Source: a bacterium | GTDB taxonomy: Bacteria > UBA8248 | Reading direction: 5' to 3' | DNA length: 64,000 nucleotides | Assembly: GCA_965218885.1 (NCBI GenBank) | Contig: OZ244713.1 | Coordinates: 2,800,769-2,864,768, forward strand | In this document: positions 24,524 through 33,262 of the stretch, in pieces | Layout: every line of letters begins with the position of its first letter | Numbering within the stretch: the first letter of the stretch is position 1 | Notes under the pieces: generated by a model | Database searches by the model: none | What the model was told of the DNA's origin: nothing | What the model saw: the letters and a program-made list of their open reading frames with translations, nothing else | Position numbers and translations under genes: made by a program

Positions 24524-25066
24524 ATGTTCTACATGAAAGAACTGCCTAACGAGGAAGATTTCAGGCCCCTCGTGCCGGAGTATTCCTCTCTGGATACTTC
24601 CTCGGTCATGCTTTTTTATCTTTTTTTGCAGGTCGGCAGCGATATGCTCACCGTTTTTGAAACGTACCTGGCCGATCATGGCGTATCGCAGGGCAGGTTT
24701 ATCGTTTTATTGTTGTTGCTGCGCTCCCAGGTGAGGAACAACGGCTCGGGCCTCAGCCCATCGGAGTTGGCCAGACAAGCGGGTGTGACGCGCGCGACGA
24801 TGACCGGGTTGATGAAGGGACTTCAGCGCGATGGGCTCATCGAGCGTTTCAGCCACGATGGCGATAGAAGGAAAGTCATCGTTCGTCTCACATCAAAAGG
24901 AAAAAAGAGCCTGAATTCCATTTTTCCAGACTATTATTCGCGCATCGCGGAACTCATGAATGATTTGGAGGACGAGGAAAGAGAGAAATTATCCATGCTC
25001 CTCCATAAAGTGAAAAATAAAATGTATTCATCAAAACAAGCGCCGGCCGCCGGCGCCCAAGGATGA
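24524..25066 (+). CDS. MarR family transcriptional regulator
   Basis: LSPSELARQAGVTRATMTGLMKGLQRDGLIER, DRRKVIVRLT. Confidence 0.92.
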   Translation: MFYMKELPNEEDFRPLVPEYSSLDTSSVMLFYLFLQVGSDMLTVFETYLADHGVSQGRFIVLLLLLRSQVRNNGSGLSPSELARQAGVTRATMTGLMKGLQRDGLIERFSHDGDRRKVIVRLTSKGKKSLNSIFPDYYSRIAELMNDLEDEEREKLSMLLHKVKNKMYSSKQAPAAGAQG

Positions 25067-25127: not shown

Positions 25128-26372
25128 ATGGCGAAACCCAAAGTAATTATCCAGCTATACCCCATGCTGCCTGCGGAAAACCGGGAGGAGCGCGAGCAGA
25201 AAAGGCCTTTGGCCAGGGACAAGGATTTGTACCATCACGTGCTTCACGAATGGGTCGACATCGTGAAGGCCGCCGATGAGATGGGCGTATGGGGCATCAG
25301 CACAATCGAGCACCATCTGCATTCGGAGGGCTATGAAGTGGGGCCCAATCCGGGCGTTCTCAACGCATGGTGGGCCGCTCAGGTGAAAAACGCGAGAGTG
25401 GGCGCGCTCGGTTACGTTATGGCGACGCAGGATCCGATTCGCGTGGCCGAGGAAACGGCCATACTCGACCACATCACCAAGGGGAAGTTCTTCTGCGGCG
25501 TGGCGCGGGGGTATCAGTCCAGGTGGGCGAACATCCTGGGTCAATTCAGCGACACCCGGGCCACCGTCTCCACCGACTTGGGCGGGGCCGATGACGTGAA
25601 GAACCGCGACATCTTCGAAGAGCGCGTCGAGATGCTTCTTAAATTCTGGCAAGAAGATTCGGTGGAGGTGAAAGGAGCGCATTACGAGATTCCCTATCCC
25701 TATGAGGATGGAATCGATTATCCGGCCTGGAGGAGCGCCCGGGACGCCGGCGCAATCGGCGAGGTCGGCGATGACAATCGGGTGCGAAGGGTGAGCGTTG
25801 TTCCCAAGCCTTACCAAGAGCCTTATCCACCCATGTTTCAAGCCGTGAGCGCGAGCCCTGATTCCATAAAATTCGCCGCGAGAAATGGGTTCCGGCCCGT
25901 GTATTTCACCAAGCTGGAAAAGATGGAGGAATTCTCCCACCTCTACGTGGAGGAAGCGGCCAAGGCGGGCCACAACTTCGCCCATGGTGAGCGGCAATGC
26001 GTTTGCCGGTGGATTCATGTAACGGAAACCGAAGAAGAGTACGACGAGAAACTCAGGAAATACGATCAGGATATCTACCAGAACTTCTACGTGCCCTTCT
26101 TCCCCCAGTTCCCGGACGACACGGAAAGCATCGACTGGATCCAGAACATCAAGGAAAGCGGAATTTTCCTGGGAGGTACGGTAGATACGCTCAAGCGGGA
26201 GTGGGAGGAAACGTACGAAAAAGTGCCTTCGGAGTTCATCACCCTGATCTGGCACTACGCGCAATGCCCCAAGGAAGAAGTCATTTATGAGCTGGAAACG
26301 TTTATGACGAAAGTGTGGCCCGACCTGGAGTGCCCGGTGTCGAACGGCGTTACGGTCGGCGGCGTCGCCTGA
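25128..26372 (+). CDS. LLM-class flavin-dependent oxidoreductase (luciferase-like monooxygenase)
   Basis: AADEMG..STIEHHLHSEG, DPIRVAEETAILDHITKGK, GVARGYQ, PKPYQEPYPP. Confidence 0.9.
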   Translation: MAKPKVIIQLYPMLPAENREEREQKRPLARDKDLYHHVLHEWVDIVKAADEMGVWGISTIEHHLHSEGYEVGPNPGVLNAWWAAQVKNARVGALGYVMATQDPIRVAEETAILDHITKGKFFCGVARGYQSRWANILGQFSDTRATVSTDLGGADDVKNRDIFEERVEMLLKFWQEDSVEVKGAHYEIPYPYEDGIDYPAWRSARDAGAIGEVGDDNRVRRVSVVPKPYQEPYPPMFQAVSASPDSIKFAARNGFRPVYFTKLEKMEEFSHLYVEEAAKAGHNFAHGERQCVCRWIHVTETEEEYDEKLRKYDQDIYQNFYVPFFPQFPDDTESIDWIQNIKESGIFLGGTVDTLKREWEETYEKVPSEFITLIWHYAQCPKEEVIYELETFMTKVWPDLECPVSNGVTVGGVA

Positions 26373-26444: not shown

Positions 26445-27158
26445 ATGTATGAAATCATCGATCTGAGCCAGGAGATTTATACCGGCGCGCCCAGGTTTCC
26501 CGGGCATCCGGCGACGACGATCGAGTACGTCGCCAGGCACGAAGACGCGGCCAACGCGCCGATCAGACCGAAGGACATCACGTACGCGGCCATGATGCTC
26601 CACATGTGCGACCACGGGCCGACGCATACCGATTCAGTGAGCCACATCGATGAACGCGAAACGGCACCGAACATCGATCAGGCGCCGCTCGAGTGGTTCA
26701 TCACCCGGGCGATTGCGCTGGACTTCACGGGCAAGGTGGAGCCGATGGAGGAGATATCCTTGCAGTTGCTGCAGGATGAGCTTTCGGCGGCGAACCTCAC
26801 ACCCCCCAGGGACGGCACGCTTCTCTTCACGGGCGGGCATTTCAAGCGCACCTATCCGGCGGACGACTACCTCACGACCTACCCGGGCCTGGGGTATGAC
26901 GCCGCGGATTTCCTCTATCGTGAATGCGGCGTGGTGAACATCGGACAGGATGCGCCCAGCATCGACGCCGGCGTGAACACCACGGAACTGACGTTTCCCT
27001 GTCATGTGCTTTGCCGGGAACTCCAGCGCCACAACACGGAAAATCTGGCGAATATCGAAGCGGTGGCGGGGAAGGAATTTCTCTACGTGGGGCTCCCCCT
27101 CAAGATTCGCGCAGGCACGGGCTCTCCCGTGCGCGCCGTCGCCGTGATGAACCTTTGA
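26445..27158 (+). CDS. Cyclase family metallohydrolase (kynurenine formamidase-like)
   Basis: IIDLSQEI, HGPTHTDSVSH (HxGTHxD-like), GQDAPSID, ENLANI, PLKIRAGTGSPVRAVA. Confidence 0.88.
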   Translation: MYEIIDLSQEIYTGAPRFPGHPATTIEYVARHEDAANAPIRPKDITYAAMMLHMCDHGPTHTDSVSHIDERETAPNIDQAPLEWFITRAIALDFTGKVEPMEEISLQLLQDELSAANLTPPRDGTLLFTGGHFKRTYPADDYLTTYPGLGYDAADFLYRECGVVNIGQDAPSIDAGVNTTELTFPCHVLCRELQRHNTENLANIEAVAGKEFLYVGLPLKIRAGTGSPVRAVAVMNL

Positions 27159-27282
27159 GCAAACGGTGGCATTCTCGCCTTCATCATGAGTCTGTTGAGG
27201 GCGAGAAACTCTCGAATCATTTTGCCGCCATCATGGTTGTTCCAACGAGAGGGATTCTCGTTTCGTGAGGAGATTCAGGATT

Positions 27283-27633
27283 ATGCCGAAGACAGTGGAT
27301 TGGTATTATCATCGCTCCGGCTGAAAGACTTGCGCTAAAACGCAAGCGTTTCTTGCGGAGAACGGTATCGGGGTGTCCGAGCAGGCCAGCTCCAAAAAAG
27401 ACGTGGTGGATGAAGGCAACGTCGATTCTGTTCTGGATGGCGTGGCGGATGTGTATTCGACCAGGGGCAGAAAGGTGATCCACCTGAACATCGAAGAAGA
27501 AAAACCTGCGCGAGAAGACGTGCTGGCTCTTTTGATGGGTCGTTCAGGCACGCTCAGAGCCCCTGTCATCAAATATCAAAGCACCCTCATCGTCGGCTTC
27601 GATGAAGAAACATACGCACAGGTTTTGAAATAA
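27283..27633 (+). CDS. ArsC/Spx-like thioredoxin-fold selenoprotein (UxxC), 116 aa
   Basis: ATG 27283 with SD GAGGAG/AGGA gives MPKTVDWYYHRSG-[TGA 27322-27324]-KTC-AKTQAFLAE, in frame with the 27373..27633 fragment (GRSGTLRAP..LIVGF, ArsC-like). Hairpins follow the UGA. Confidence 0.85.
27325..27364 (+). promoter_or_regulatory. Putative bacterial SECIS for the ArsC-like gene
   Basis: After the UGA: CTTGCG-CTAAAA-CGCAAG, or alternatively CGTT(T)CT-TGCGG-AGAACG with a bulged U and G in the loop about 30-34 nt downstream. Confidence 0.5.
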
Positions 27634-27648
27634 ATCGTATCCGGTGAC

Positions 27649-29103
27649 TTAGAGGGCCAACTGGCCCTGGGTGGGTTCCGCTCAGCAAAACCACGATTCG
27701 GTCAAACGAGGCGGGCGGATTCGATCGGGCGCGAAGGCGGCCTTTGCCTGCGCCTGATCGGGACGCTCCAGAATATCGGCCGCCAATTCGCGAATCCTCA
27801 TGAATGTTGTGGCGGCATCCTCGAGGCGCGTTGCTGCATCCTCGGCGAGGAGGAGCGCTTCTTCGTGCAGTTTGTCCATTCTCGCGTCCGGATGCTCCCA
27901 GCGGTAGATGAAATTCTCGGCGTCGAGTTCCTTGATGTATCTCGTCATGTGGGGGGAGTCGAGCAAATGGGAACCCGGCGGCGCCAGAAGCCGGATGGCC
28001 ATCTGAATGGGGTCCACCTCGTCGATCAATGTGTATTCTTCAATGAAATCCAGTAGATAGAAATAATCCTGCGCGCTTGTCCAAGGCGTGAATGCGACCA
28101 GAGATGGTCTGATGGAAACATTCGCCTCCCGGGCGGCTTTCACCACACGAAAGACATCTTCTTTGGTGTGTCCCTTATCCAGATGAGCGAGCACGAGGTC
28201 GCTCAAGGACTCCATCGCTGTGACGAAAAACGCGCACCCGTTTTCCCGGAATTCAGGCAGAAGAGCCTCATGTTTGATCAGGTGCTCTACTTTGGCCGTA
28301 AAATCGAAGGAAAGGGCGGGGAATCTCTCGTGTAAGGCGCGAGCGACTCGAATCGCATGAGACGGGCCATTCAGAAAATCCGGGTCCGCAAAGGTGATGT
28401 GGCGCGCGCCTTGCGCGGCCAGATCTTCGATATCCTCCAGAACCTTCTCTTGGGGCACGATGAAGAAACGGCCTTCATACACTGGCGGAATGGGGCAATG
28501 CAGGCACAAGTGTTTGCAGCCCCGGCTCGCCTCGACGGCCCCGGCGGGATAGTGGTTCTCCCCGCTTATGAGATGCGCGTATGCCTGAAGCGCAGGCAAT
28601 CCCTCTCGCTCGGGCTTGAGCAAGGGAATTTTTTCGAGATACGGGCCCGATGTGTGCTCTCTCGTGGCTGCGCCGGGAACCTCAAGGATGCCGGAGGGTC
28701 GGGACAGCTCTTGAACGAGCTTCACGAGCGGCCATTCGAACTCGCCACCTATGGCCGAATCCGCGCCGTTTTCGAGAAGATAGTCCTTGTTGAGCAGACC
28801 ATAGAGGCCATAAAAGCAAATATGGCACTTCGGATTCGTCTCACGTATTTTCGCCGCCACTTCTACGCCGAGCCTGAGCGCCGTGTGCATCGGCACGCTG
28901 ATGCCGACGAATTTCGCATTCGCTATTTTCTCTTGGGAGAAATCCTCCGCCGCCACGTCCATCGCCCAGGGCTGAAAGCCCGCTTCGCGCAGAAAAGCCA
29001 GGGGCGAGGCGACGGCGAGGGGCTGGTGTCCCAACTCGTAGCAGGAGATGAGAACGACGGCGCCGGGTGATTGCCACTTGGATGTCTTATCGTTTCGACT
29101 CAC
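27649..29103 (-). CDS. CUAEP-tail radical SAM selenoprotein with N-terminal B12-binding-like domain, 484 aa
   Basis: EASRGCKHLCLHC (CxxxCxxC). The frame continues past TGA 27684-27682 as ESWFC-U-AEPTQGQLAL-TAA (27651-27649). SECIS-like hairpin downstream of the UGA. Confidence 0.88.
27653..27668 (-). promoter_or_regulatory. Putative bacterial SECIS for the radical SAM gene
   Basis: AGGGCC-AGTT-GGCCCT starts 14 nt after the UGA; loop GU at +21/+22, comparable to the E. coli fdhF-type SECIS geometry. Confidence 0.7.
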
Positions 29104-29125
29104 GGCGAATTCTCTCGGTAGCCAT

Positions 29126-29158
29126 AAAAAAAGCCCCGGACTTATGACGCCCGGGGCT
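29126..29158 (-). terminator. Intrinsic terminator after iscA
   Basis: Minus strand AGCCCCGG-N11-CCGGGGCT followed by a T tract. Confidence 0.75.
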
Positions 29159-29175
29159 CGTAAGGCATTGTTTCA

Positions 29176-29559
29176 TCAAGTGGTGAAAGATTTGCCGCAA
29201 CCGCACATGCTCATGGCGTTGGGGTTGTTGATCTTGAAGCCCGAGCCCTGCAGGCCATCGACGAAATCGATTTCCGTTCCCGCGATGACGGGATAGCTCT
29301 GGGGGTCCACGAACACGTCGAACCCATTGGCGGAGAATACCTTATCCTCCGGATTGGCGGATTCCTCGAAATAAAGACCATAGTTGTAACCGGAGCATCC
29401 ACCGGCGGTGACGGCCAGGCGCAGGCCGTAGCCGGTTTTTCCTTCCGACTCGAGAATCTCGGCCACCTTGCCGTTGGCTGTCGGCGTAACCGTAATGCCT
29501 TTAAGTGCTTGCGGTTTCTTTTGAGATTGATCGAATAAATTGATCGTTCCATCCGTCAT
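29176..29559 (-). CDS. A-type Fe-S cluster carrier (IscA/HesB/ErpA family)
   Basis: LRLAVTAGGCSGYNY, IDFVDGLQGSGFKINNPN, CGCGKSF. Confidence 0.95.
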   Translation of the reverse strand: MTDGTINLFDQSQKKPQALKGITVTPTANGKVAEILESEGKTGYGLRLAVTAGGCSGYNYGLYFEESANPEDKVFSANGFDVFVDPQSYPVIAGTEIDFVDGLQGSGFKINNPNAMSMCGCGKSFTT

Positions 29560-29778
29560 CTGTTGTTTCTCCTTGGCCTTGATGATGGCGATTGAAATTT
29601 GTTTTTGTCTCTACAGTTTTGAATATTACTCTTTTTTTGTTTTTTTGCAAAGGCCTGATTCACATATATCCTTGAAATGTGGGCTTGTTGACGGAGGAAA
29701 CCGCCTTTTCCCCGCCGAGTGAGCGGGGGACTTCCTGTACAAGGGTTGAAAATTCTATATATTTTGTTGTTAAAAAAC

Positions 29779-29807
29779 TTGACAATAACAGACTAAGATA
29801 TTATATT
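29779..29807 (+). promoter_or_regulatory. Sigma70 promoter upstream of clpB
   Basis: TTGACA-N17-TATATT in an AT-rich intergenic region. Confidence 0.65.
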
Positions 29808-29955
29808 TTCCTTGCGTCGAGAGCTTCGGCCGCCTCCGCCATGCGGAATTGACGAGGTTTTCGGCGCCGAGAAATTTATCGAAATAGAGTGGAAATTTAT
29901 CGGAATTTATCGAATTTTTCATGAATTTTCACAAAAAAATTCGGAGCACACGTTC

Positions 29956-32586
<2,631 letters not shown>

Positions 32587-32653
32587 ATACTTCAGGGCGG
32601 CGGTGGAGCTTTGATTCGTGTCCATAAAACATGAAAGCAAGCGAATGTAAAAA

Positions 32654-32892
32654 ATAGTTGAAAAATTCGGGAGTTGTATACATGACTCGGCCTTGGGATT
32701 CCGGGTTTTACATTCGAAAGGGAACGATGTAATCACTCCCCCCTTGAGCAGCCGTAGAGACAGGTCTCGACCTGTCCCTACCAAAGACGGTCCATGCGCT
32801 TTCTGGTTCGTCATTCCGGCTTTCGCCGGAATGACGGTGAACATTCTCGATTGGGGGAGCAACAACCCCTTGGGGGATTTTTCAAAAACTCA
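32654..32892. repeat. Degenerate third copy of the composite repeat family
   Basis: TAGTTGAAAAA (32654), ATCACTCCCCCCTTGAG, GTAGAGACAGGTCTCGACCTGTCCCTAC (32754-32781), GTCATTCCGGCTTTCGCCGGAATGAC (32810-32835), CAACAACCCC and TTTTTCAAAAACTC. Confidence 0.7.
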
Positions 32893-32938
32893 ACACCATT
32901 GGATCCGGCTGGAAAATTAAGAACTATATAAAGGAGAG

Positions 32939-33226
32939 TTGGCAATGCTTTCGATGAATATATCAGCAGCTACGGCGTTAAGTCAGTTGAAAAGTATTCT
33001 ACACCAGACTTTGCAGAACGGTAGGGCAAAATATTGGAATACTAACAATAACAATGAAGCAGAAGAGCAGAGTTTCTATTGGTTGTTTTGTTGGGCTAAA
33101 ACTACAAGAAGGGGTTGTGGCCCTTATGCCGCCCAAGCAATGGAAGCGCTAAGAGAGATTTTTGATGACGCCCTAATTCAACAGACGTCATTACAATATG
33201 CTAGGGATTCACGCGACTATCGATAA
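32939..33226 (+). CDS. Hypothetical AT-rich orphan protein (about 95 aa)
   Basis: SD AAAGGAG before TTG 32939/ATG 32945; open frame in an AT-rich island; no recognisable motif. Confidence 0.5.
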   Translation: MAMLSMNISAATALSQLKSILHQTLQNGRAKYWNTNNNNEAEEQSFYWLFCWAKTTRRGCGPYAAQAMEALREIFDDALIQQTSLQYARDSRDYR

Positions 33227-33262
33227 AACTTTAATTTTGTATCCCGATAAGGAGAAAGATTG

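Follow-up and report, generated by a model that had tools for sequence, protein, structure and literature searches.

Introduction

Radical S-adenosylmethionine (SAM) enzymes (hereafter rSAM) of the ArsL family, which form the C-As bond in arsinothricin biosynthesis, cleave SAM to a 3-amino-3-carboxypropyl radical that is transferred to As(III) bound by an RCCLKC tail (10.1101/2024.02.01.577332; 10.64898/2026.04.29.721666). According to the ArsL preprint, cysteines are conserved in ArsL only in the cluster motif (three) and in the tail (three). A related family, the CUAEP/CCAEP-tail radical SAM (seleno)proteins (NF040546), has been called uncharacterized, and its CU motif, in which U stands for selenocysteine (Sec), has been suggested to contact a heavy metal (Haft preprint 10.1101/2022.07.06.499078). 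Among the small redox selenoproteins, family NF041106 is listed as 'Arsenate reductase-like protein, UxxC' (2026 review PMC13188914), and the Sec forms of glutaredoxin-coupled ArsC are known to carry UxxS (Zhang et al. 2005, PMC1088965). Here, we analyze three genes at positions 27283 to 29559 of a 64,000-nucleotide stretch of bacterial DNA (contig OZ244713.1 of assembly GCA_965218885.1; hereafter the window, to which all positions refer unless a locus is named), namely a gene for an ArsC/Spx-family UxxC selenoprotein (hereafter the ArsC-like protein), a gene for a CUAEP-tail rSAM selenoprotein, and iscA, which encodes an A-type Fe-S carrier. An earlier reading of this DNA (the original prediction) took the three to be an undescribed selenium-dependent metalloid-processing system, in which the UxxC protein reduces As(V) to As(III) or recycles the oxidized Cys-Sec tail of the rSAM enzyme, the rSAM enzyme adds an alkyl group to the metalloid, and IscA provides the clusters. 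Such a pathway would have mattered, but the linkage that motivated it fails outside one lineage. We consider it probable that the locus consists of an IscA-rSAM unit and an unrelated, context-free UxxC redox selenoprotein, which has become its convergent neighbor by lineage-specific gene order.

Partnership of the rSAM Gene with an Fe-S Carrier Gene

The rSAM gene occupies positions 27649-29103 of the minus strand and encodes 484 amino acids from a GTG start at 29103 to a stop codon at 27651-27649. Upstream of it on the same strand, and separated from it by a terminator as the original prediction had described, lies iscA (29176-29559), which has an AAGGAG ribosome-binding site and encodes 127 amino acids. 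The iscA product scores 120.2 bits against TIGR00049 (cut-off 58.8) and matches PF01521, its score against the ErpA equivalog (106.7 bits) is below the cut-off of 117, and its Cys55, Cys119 and Cys121 form the cluster-ligand pattern C-x(n)-C-x-C of IscA. The gene neighborhood was compared in 80 loci where a relative of the rSAM protein is encoded, taken from one genome per species and spanning Acidobacteriota, Nitrospirota, Planctomycetota, Poribacteria, Rokubacteria, Gemmatimonadota, Chloroflexota and other phyla; loci are cited below by number (L001 onwards), of which L001-L003 are close relatives of the window (rSAM proteins 80-86% identical), L004 is a Nitrospinae metagenome-assembled genome (MAG) and L005 a Tectomicrobia MAG. 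In the rSAM protein tree, the window falls in a clade of eleven rows with support of 100/99, and every row has iscA ahead of the rSAM gene, on the same strand. Over the whole comparison, an Fe-S carrier (IscA, NfuA-like or Nfu) adjoins the rSAM gene in at least 29 of the 80 loci, on the same strand in all but one, and the carrier-bearing loci come from Acidobacteriota, Nitrospirota, Planctomycetota, Poribacteria, Rokubacteria, Bacteroidota and others; four further carrier-adjacent rSAM loci (L172-L175) add to these from outside the 80. IscA and Nfu neighbors were told apart by phmmer, since NfuA-like fusion proteins link the two in clustering. The predicted connection between IscA and the rSAM enzyme is thus borne out, Fe-S carriers being neighbors of this family across many phyla, and it is the only well-supported partnership at the locus.

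The form of this partnership differs between lineages. In other phyla, a compact same-strand cluster consists of genes for the rSAM protein, Nfu, a DUF169 protein and an ATP-grasp ligase; the ligase, of the L-amino-acid-ligase type, occurs in 32 of the 80 rSAM loci and DUF169 in 16. Loci in which the four genes are tightly clustered include L018, L027 (2398-6652), L029, L034, L035, L041, L043, L044 and L055, among others. By analogy with ArsL, the cluster with ATP-grasp suggests that an unusual amino acid may be made and then ligated. Homologues of the ATP-grasp ligase, DUF169 and Nfu were looked for across the 64-kb window, and none was found. In L004-L006 and L172-L175, a gene for a Cys-rich, IscR-like Rrf2 regulator stands before iscA, with clpB divergent from it (Rrf2 coordinates are 5612-6007 in L004, 424-822 in L006 and 2473-2898 in L172). 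The window and L001-L003 are without this gene and have in its stead an AT-rich spacer of 400 nucleotides (29560-29956) between iscA and clpB, in which a remnant of Rrf2 was sought and none found; the Rrf2 gene has been lost at this site in the window and these close relatives. The same spacer carries a near-consensus clpB promoter, TTGACA-17-TATATT, at 29779-29807.

The terminator in the gap between iscA and the rSAM gene (29124-29159, minus strand) consists of a hairpin at 29159-29131 with 11 pairs, eight of them GC, followed by a T run, and a hairpin with a T run occupies the same position in L001-L004 and L172. In its stem, GCCCCGG...CCGGGGC, sequence and position are conserved and the loop varies. 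A metatranscriptome contig of iscA stops at 29118, immediately past the T run, and in three of four metatranscriptomes the depth of the iscA contigs is about three times that of the rSAM contigs, a weak measure, as it is taken from assembled contigs. These observations suggest that the terminator is leaky and keeps the IscA carrier in excess. Only about 20 nucleotides lie between the T run and the rSAM start, and therefore expression of the rSAM gene probably depends on read-through.

Distribution of the UxxC Selenoprotein Gene

The ArsC-like gene (27283-27633, plus strand; stop codon 27631-27633) encodes 116 amino acids with the motif U14-K-T-C17, and its open reading frame (ORF) translates as MPKTVDWYYHRSG-U-KTCAKTQ... 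with TGA read as Sec. As originally described, the two UGA-recoded genes converge with exactly 15 nucleotides between their stop codons (27634-27648), and a terminator scan of this spacer shows it to be terminator-free. The inference of a shared pathway, which had been drawn from this adjacency, did not survive comparison with other genomes. When the flanks of the 80 rSAM loci, 72 of which have at least 500 nucleotides of downstream flank, were searched with tblastn, the ArsC-like gene was found in five (L001-L003, L004 and L005), so that the association of ArsC-like genes with CUAEP/CCAEP rSAM genes, on which the original prediction had staked its neighborhood check, is essentially missing elsewhere. 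The reverse search covered 80 metagenome loci encoding the ArsC-like family (L092-L171), three of which contain the rSAM gene, two being from the clade of the window and the third a Tectomicrobia contig identical to that of L005. The remaining 77 loci have no common neighbor, the best cluster being present in eight, and four further members of the family, looked up singly, have unrelated neighbors. The NF041106 family, to which the protein belongs, is common in soil metagenomes. The two genes are therefore neighbors in one clade only, and their adjacency is patchy even there, as the ArsC-like gene is present in six of the eleven rows and absent from five. The sister lineages that are free of it have an OYE-type gene in its place (L006) or MFS and BI-1 genes (L172-L175). 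In addition, 49 of the 54 rSAM loci that encode a Sec tail are without an ArsC-like neighbor, and hence the Sec tail does not require a nearby ArsC-like gene.

Where the adjacency does occur, more than these two genes is conserved. The Tectomicrobia contig keeps the genes for BI-1 and a luciferase-like monooxygenase (LLM), which in the window are upstream of the ArsC-like gene, and L004 keeps clpB and dnaK; the pairing of the ArsC-like and rSAM genes is thus embedded in a wider inherited gene order around heat-shock genes. Since they run tail to tail, the two do not form a single transcription unit. Contigs assembled from metatranscriptomes of related strains do cross the spacer (27531-27816, 27473-27675 and 27555-27675, from runs X23, X25 and X26), and they fit overlapping antisense 3' ends rather than co-transcription, in which case the 3' ends of both mRNAs, including the Sec insertion sequence (SECIS) of the rSAM gene, are probably covered by antisense transcripts.

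Identity of the Two Selenoproteins

Both protein families are already catalogued in NCBIfam with their functions uncharacterized, and both proteins exceed the curated cut-offs of these selenoprotein families. The ArsC-like protein scores 119.8 bits against NF041106, ArsC family (seleno)protein (cut-off 85), and matches the Pfam family ArsC (PF03960). Across 47 sequences of the family, W7, Y9, H10, R11, U/C14, C17, R92 and P94 are invariant. The AlphaFold2 (AF2) model of the protein, with a predicted local distance difference test score (pLDDT) of 92.8, places UxxC at the start of helix 1. Its nearest solved relative, both by sequence (E 4e-9) and by fold (template modeling score, TM, of about 0.57), is Spx, whose C10xxC13 aligns on U14xxC17 and whose LRRP motif aligns on LRAP; ArsC-related proteins, YffB, glutaredoxins and NrdH follow in rank. 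The score against the Spx/MgsR model TIGR01617 (44.3 bits) is below the cut-off of 75.05. Against TIGR00014, the arsenate reductase equivalog, the protein gave no match at E<=0.01, and the arsenate reductase structures 3rdw and 3f0i rank low in the sequence and fold searches of the PDB (E 0.06-0.24). With Spx- and glutaredoxin-like proteins nearest in both respects and TIGR00014 unmatched, the role of As(V) reductase that had been assigned to the UxxC protein finds no footing. The ArsC-like protein is probably a selenol/thiol oxidoreductase of the UxxC type that has a thioredoxin fold, belongs to the ArsC/Spx superfamily and stands alone.

The rSAM protein scores 659.3 bits against NF040546 (cut-off 500), the match running from residue 16 to 483 and from profile position 1 to 467 of 468. 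The homology search for CUAEP/CCAEP proteins yielded at least 8000 protein clusters, and the family is a very large one, with about 70% selenoproteins, still uncharacterized and the nearest relative of ArsL. Among 61 sequences, C196, C200, C203, C473 and U474 are invariant, and the protein of the window ends ...RLTESWFC-U-AEPTQGQLAL, with the tail FCUAEPTQGQLAL. The cluster motif C196-x3-C200-x2-C203 is encoded at 28495-28518 of the minus strand, and the protein matches Pfam Radical_SAM. Outside the cluster motif, the invariant cysteine positions in the same 61 sequences are Cys21, Cys473 and Sec/Cys474. Cys21 (codon 29043-29041) is part of an SCYELG motif in the N-terminal Rossmann-like domain. 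The AF2 model (pLDDT 93.9) has as its best structural matches AprD4, TsrM, OxsB, MgmA and MiaB, all of them radical SAM enzymes whose N-terminal domain is Rossmann-like, B12-binding-like or of the UPF0004 type. ArsL (NF040542) is the next-best family; the score of 304.2 bits falls short of its cut-off (450), and the match, over residues 17-423, ends at profile position 414 of 423 without reaching the tail. Because ArsL is the closest family, it is a reasonable lead that the Cys-Sec tail binds a soft-atom substrate, and to this extent the role of metalloid alkylator, as predicted from homology, keeps some plausibility; the part of the claim that concerned arsenic does not, as nothing at the locus ties the substrate atom to this element.

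Selenocysteine Assignment

Both genes are genuine selenoprotein genes. The in-frame UGA of the ArsC-like gene (27322-27324, plus strand; Sec residue 14) is TGA in 79 of the 80 loci of the family, Cys forms (PGCISC, PGCTTC) exist, and the position aligns with Cys10 of the CxxC motif of Spx. The UGA of the rSAM gene (27682-27684, minus strand; Sec residue 474 in the tail WFC-U-AEP) corresponds to TGA in 54 and to TGT or TGC in 21 of the 75 homologous loci with a readable tail. Each UGA is followed by a SECIS-like hairpin with a G/U-containing loop, namely CGCAAG-CGUUU-CUUGCG at 27341-27357 of the plus strand, 16 nucleotides after the UGA of the ArsC-like gene, and AGGGCC-AGUU-GGCCCU at 27653-27668 of the minus strand, 13 nucleotides after the UGA of the rSAM gene and 1 nucleotide before its stop codon. 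In the rSAM hairpin, all six pairs are kept in six sequences, with three one-sided, G-U compatible changes; the ArsC-like hairpin is kept in six clade members, again with exclusively G-U compatible changes, and its core is nearly invariant, synonymous sites included, in 54 unique metagenome sequences. Family-wide, the NF041106 SECIS core ACGCAAG-GGUUC-CUUGCG is nearly invariant in nucleotides across proteins that are 42-53% identical. Double compensatory changes were not seen in either hairpin, and the structural support is good, though below the grade of covariation. An alternative hairpin, CUUGCG-CUAAAA-CGCAAG (27329-27346), was considered as the SECIS of the ArsC-like gene and rejected, as it has a C-A mismatch in L001 and others, whereas the second hairpin is conserved. 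An Rfam scan of 26500-30500 returned sub-threshold chance matches only, with no bacterial SECIS or riboswitch. Since Cys homologues exist, the hairpins are conserved and both read-through proteins pass their family cut-offs, the two UGAs represent more than chance.

Proposed Function and Competing Explanations

In the arrangement that we favor, iscA and the rSAM gene would be the functional unit, which takes the form Rrf2(IscR-like)-IscA-rSAM next to clpB in sister lineages and rSAM-Nfu-DUF169-ATP-grasp in other phyla. Judging from the sequence, the rSAM protein would be a [4Fe-4S] enzyme with a CX3CX2C motif that cleaves SAM and, like ArsL, may have as its target a soft atom bound at the flexible Cys473-Sec474 pair of the C-terminus, with the invariant Cys21 possibly contributing a third ligand. 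IscA would deliver or rebuild the cluster of this enzyme, and the conserved terminator would serve to keep the carrier in excess over it. Several points weigh against this arrangement. The adjacency of the ArsC-like and rSAM genes persists in three deep lineages (the window with its closest relatives, a Nitrospinae MAG and a Tectomicrobia MAG) whose ArsC-like proteins share only about 50% identity, and some selection for the pairing may have acted in the clade. IscA could be the general A-type carrier of the cell, encoded in an operon of the IscR type to which the rSAM gene was added. Furthermore, the tail provides two chalcogen ligands, in contrast to the three Cys of ArsL, and for the chemistry of the rSAM family homology is the sole guide.

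If the UGAs were ordinary stops, the rSAM protein would end at ...WFC and the small protein would start at an internal GTG at 27373, exactly as public gene calls truncate the two; this is highly improbable, because the conserved AEPTxGQ tail stays in frame past the TGA and Cys forms take its place in 21 loci, because a conserved N-terminus, DWxYHRxG-U-xTC, lies upstream of the internal start, and because the SECIS-like hairpins are conserved even at synonymous sites and the full-length proteins pass curated (seleno)protein models. The ArsC-like selenoprotein might otherwise belong with the same-strand genes upstream, for instance as a redox partner, a possibility that we regard as unlikely. 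These genes encode a MarR regulator (24524-25066), the LLM (25128-26372) and a cyclase-family hydrolase (PF04199; 26445-27158), after which the ArsC-like gene begins at 27283; their order is repeated in L001-L003, an LLM gene lies upstream in the Tectomicrobia contig (L094, 1829-3076), and a transcript contig (27172-27407) spans most of the spacer between the cyclase and ArsC-like genes. Nevertheless, this spacer is a gap of 124 nucleotides with a weak hairpin, neither LLM nor cyclase recurs as a neighbor across the 77 other ArsC-like loci, and the arrangement is likewise just a clade-specific gene order.

The reading in which all three proteins form one selenium-dependent metalloid pathway, with the UxxC protein reducing As(V) or recycling the Cys-Sec tail, is also one to which we give little credence. 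It draws on the adjacency kept in the clade of the window, L004 and L005, on the kinship of the rSAM enzyme with ArsL, and on the transcription of both genes in environmental relatives, as seen in metatranscriptomes. Moreover, neighboring Cys and Sec residues are able to form a selenenylsulfide, for which a reductant is needed, as in the GCUG tail of thioredoxin reductase. However, the link is absent from 75 of the 80 rSAM loci, from 77 of the 80 ArsC-like loci and from five of the eleven members of the clade itself, 49 Sec-tail rSAM loci do without an ArsC-like partner, and the genes are convergent; the ArsC-like protein has no match to TIGR00014 and a fold nearer to Spx and glutaredoxin, and ars or sel genes are not seen among the annotated flanking genes. 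A narrower version, in which the two selenoproteins are functionally linked in this clade only, for example through reduction of the Cys-Sec tail by the ArsC-like protein, appears about equally doubtful. In its most specific form, for which we see only a slim chance, the CUAEP rSAM enzyme of a Nitrospinota/Tectomicrobia-related clade would be an ArsL-type 3-amino-3-carboxypropyl transferase whose soft-atom target (Se, S, As, Sb or Hg) is bound by Cys21, Cys473 and Sec474; it would be subject to Fe-S control of the IscR type, IscA would rebuild a cluster, and the UxxC selenoprotein would be its dedicated reductant, acting on the tail selenenylsulfide, or its loader. If this were true, an ArsL-type rSAM enzyme and a UxxC reductant would constitute a two-selenoprotein relay for the formation of a carbon-heteroatom bond.

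Neighboring Genes

Annotation of the flanks covered part of the ORFs of the window, from about 17 to 41.6 kb, and comprises genes for RibF, LysE, an M16 peptidase, an OmpA-like protein, BI-1, MarR, the LLM, the cyclase, ClpB, DnaK, a DnaJ-like protein, an M48 peptidase, GrpE and an aminotransferase. The genes annotated around the locus are housekeeping genes; ars and sel genes, for which the original prediction had looked to the neighborhood, are missing among those annotated in this interval, arsM and arsQ included. A low-GC patch at 32600-33230, in the gap between clpB and dnaK, contains an ORF of 95 amino acids (32939-33226) whose GC content at third codon positions (0.39) is unlike that of its surroundings, and the patch could represent a small inserted segment or serve in regulation.

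Comparison with Known Systems

The ArsC-like protein resembles the NF041106 family in its UxxC motif and in a score above the cut-off, and we see no difference from the family in the protein itself. Among proteins of solved structure, it is closest in both sequence and fold to Spx, the CxxC regulator of Firmicutes, and it also resembles glutaredoxin- and NrdH-like redoxins. In contrast to Spx, the protein carries Sec and comes from non-Firmicute lineages, its model predicts a beta-hairpin where Spx has a helical subdomain, and binding to RNA polymerase is not evidenced. With glutaredoxin-type ArsC (TIGR00014) it has in common the PF03960 superfamily and a Sec at the position of the catalytic Cys, but the motif is UxxC here and UxxS in the known Sec forms. 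NF041106 is therefore better not called an arsenate reductase; it is an almost always Sec-containing, context-free redox protein.

ArsL, which cleaves SAM at the C-gamma-S bond, is the nearest characterized family to the rSAM protein, and the two share a CX3CX2C cluster motif and end in a Cys-rich tail. The tails differ, as C-U-A-E-P stands here on an extension of about 60 residues in place of the RCCLKC (CCxxC) of ArsL, and the arsM/arsQ context of ArsL is not seen among the annotated flanking genes. Going by the description in the preprint, not by an alignment, Cys21 would not be conserved in ArsL, and this residue could be a third ligand that complements the two-residue Cys-Sec tail to give an ArsL-like three-ligand site. 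The likeness to NF040546 is far closer, extending to a full-length match, the CX3CX2C motif, the WFC-U/C-AEP tail, the alternation of Sec and Cys, and the N-terminal B12-binding-like domain. The protein itself is no different from this family, and what sets it apart from most members is its context, in which IscA stands in place of Nfu. A third type of context for the CUAEP/CCAEP family is thereby added, [Rrf2]-IscA-rSAM beside the clpB-dnaK heat-shock genes with a conserved terminator, and it strengthens the view that these enzymes need a dedicated Fe-S carrier.

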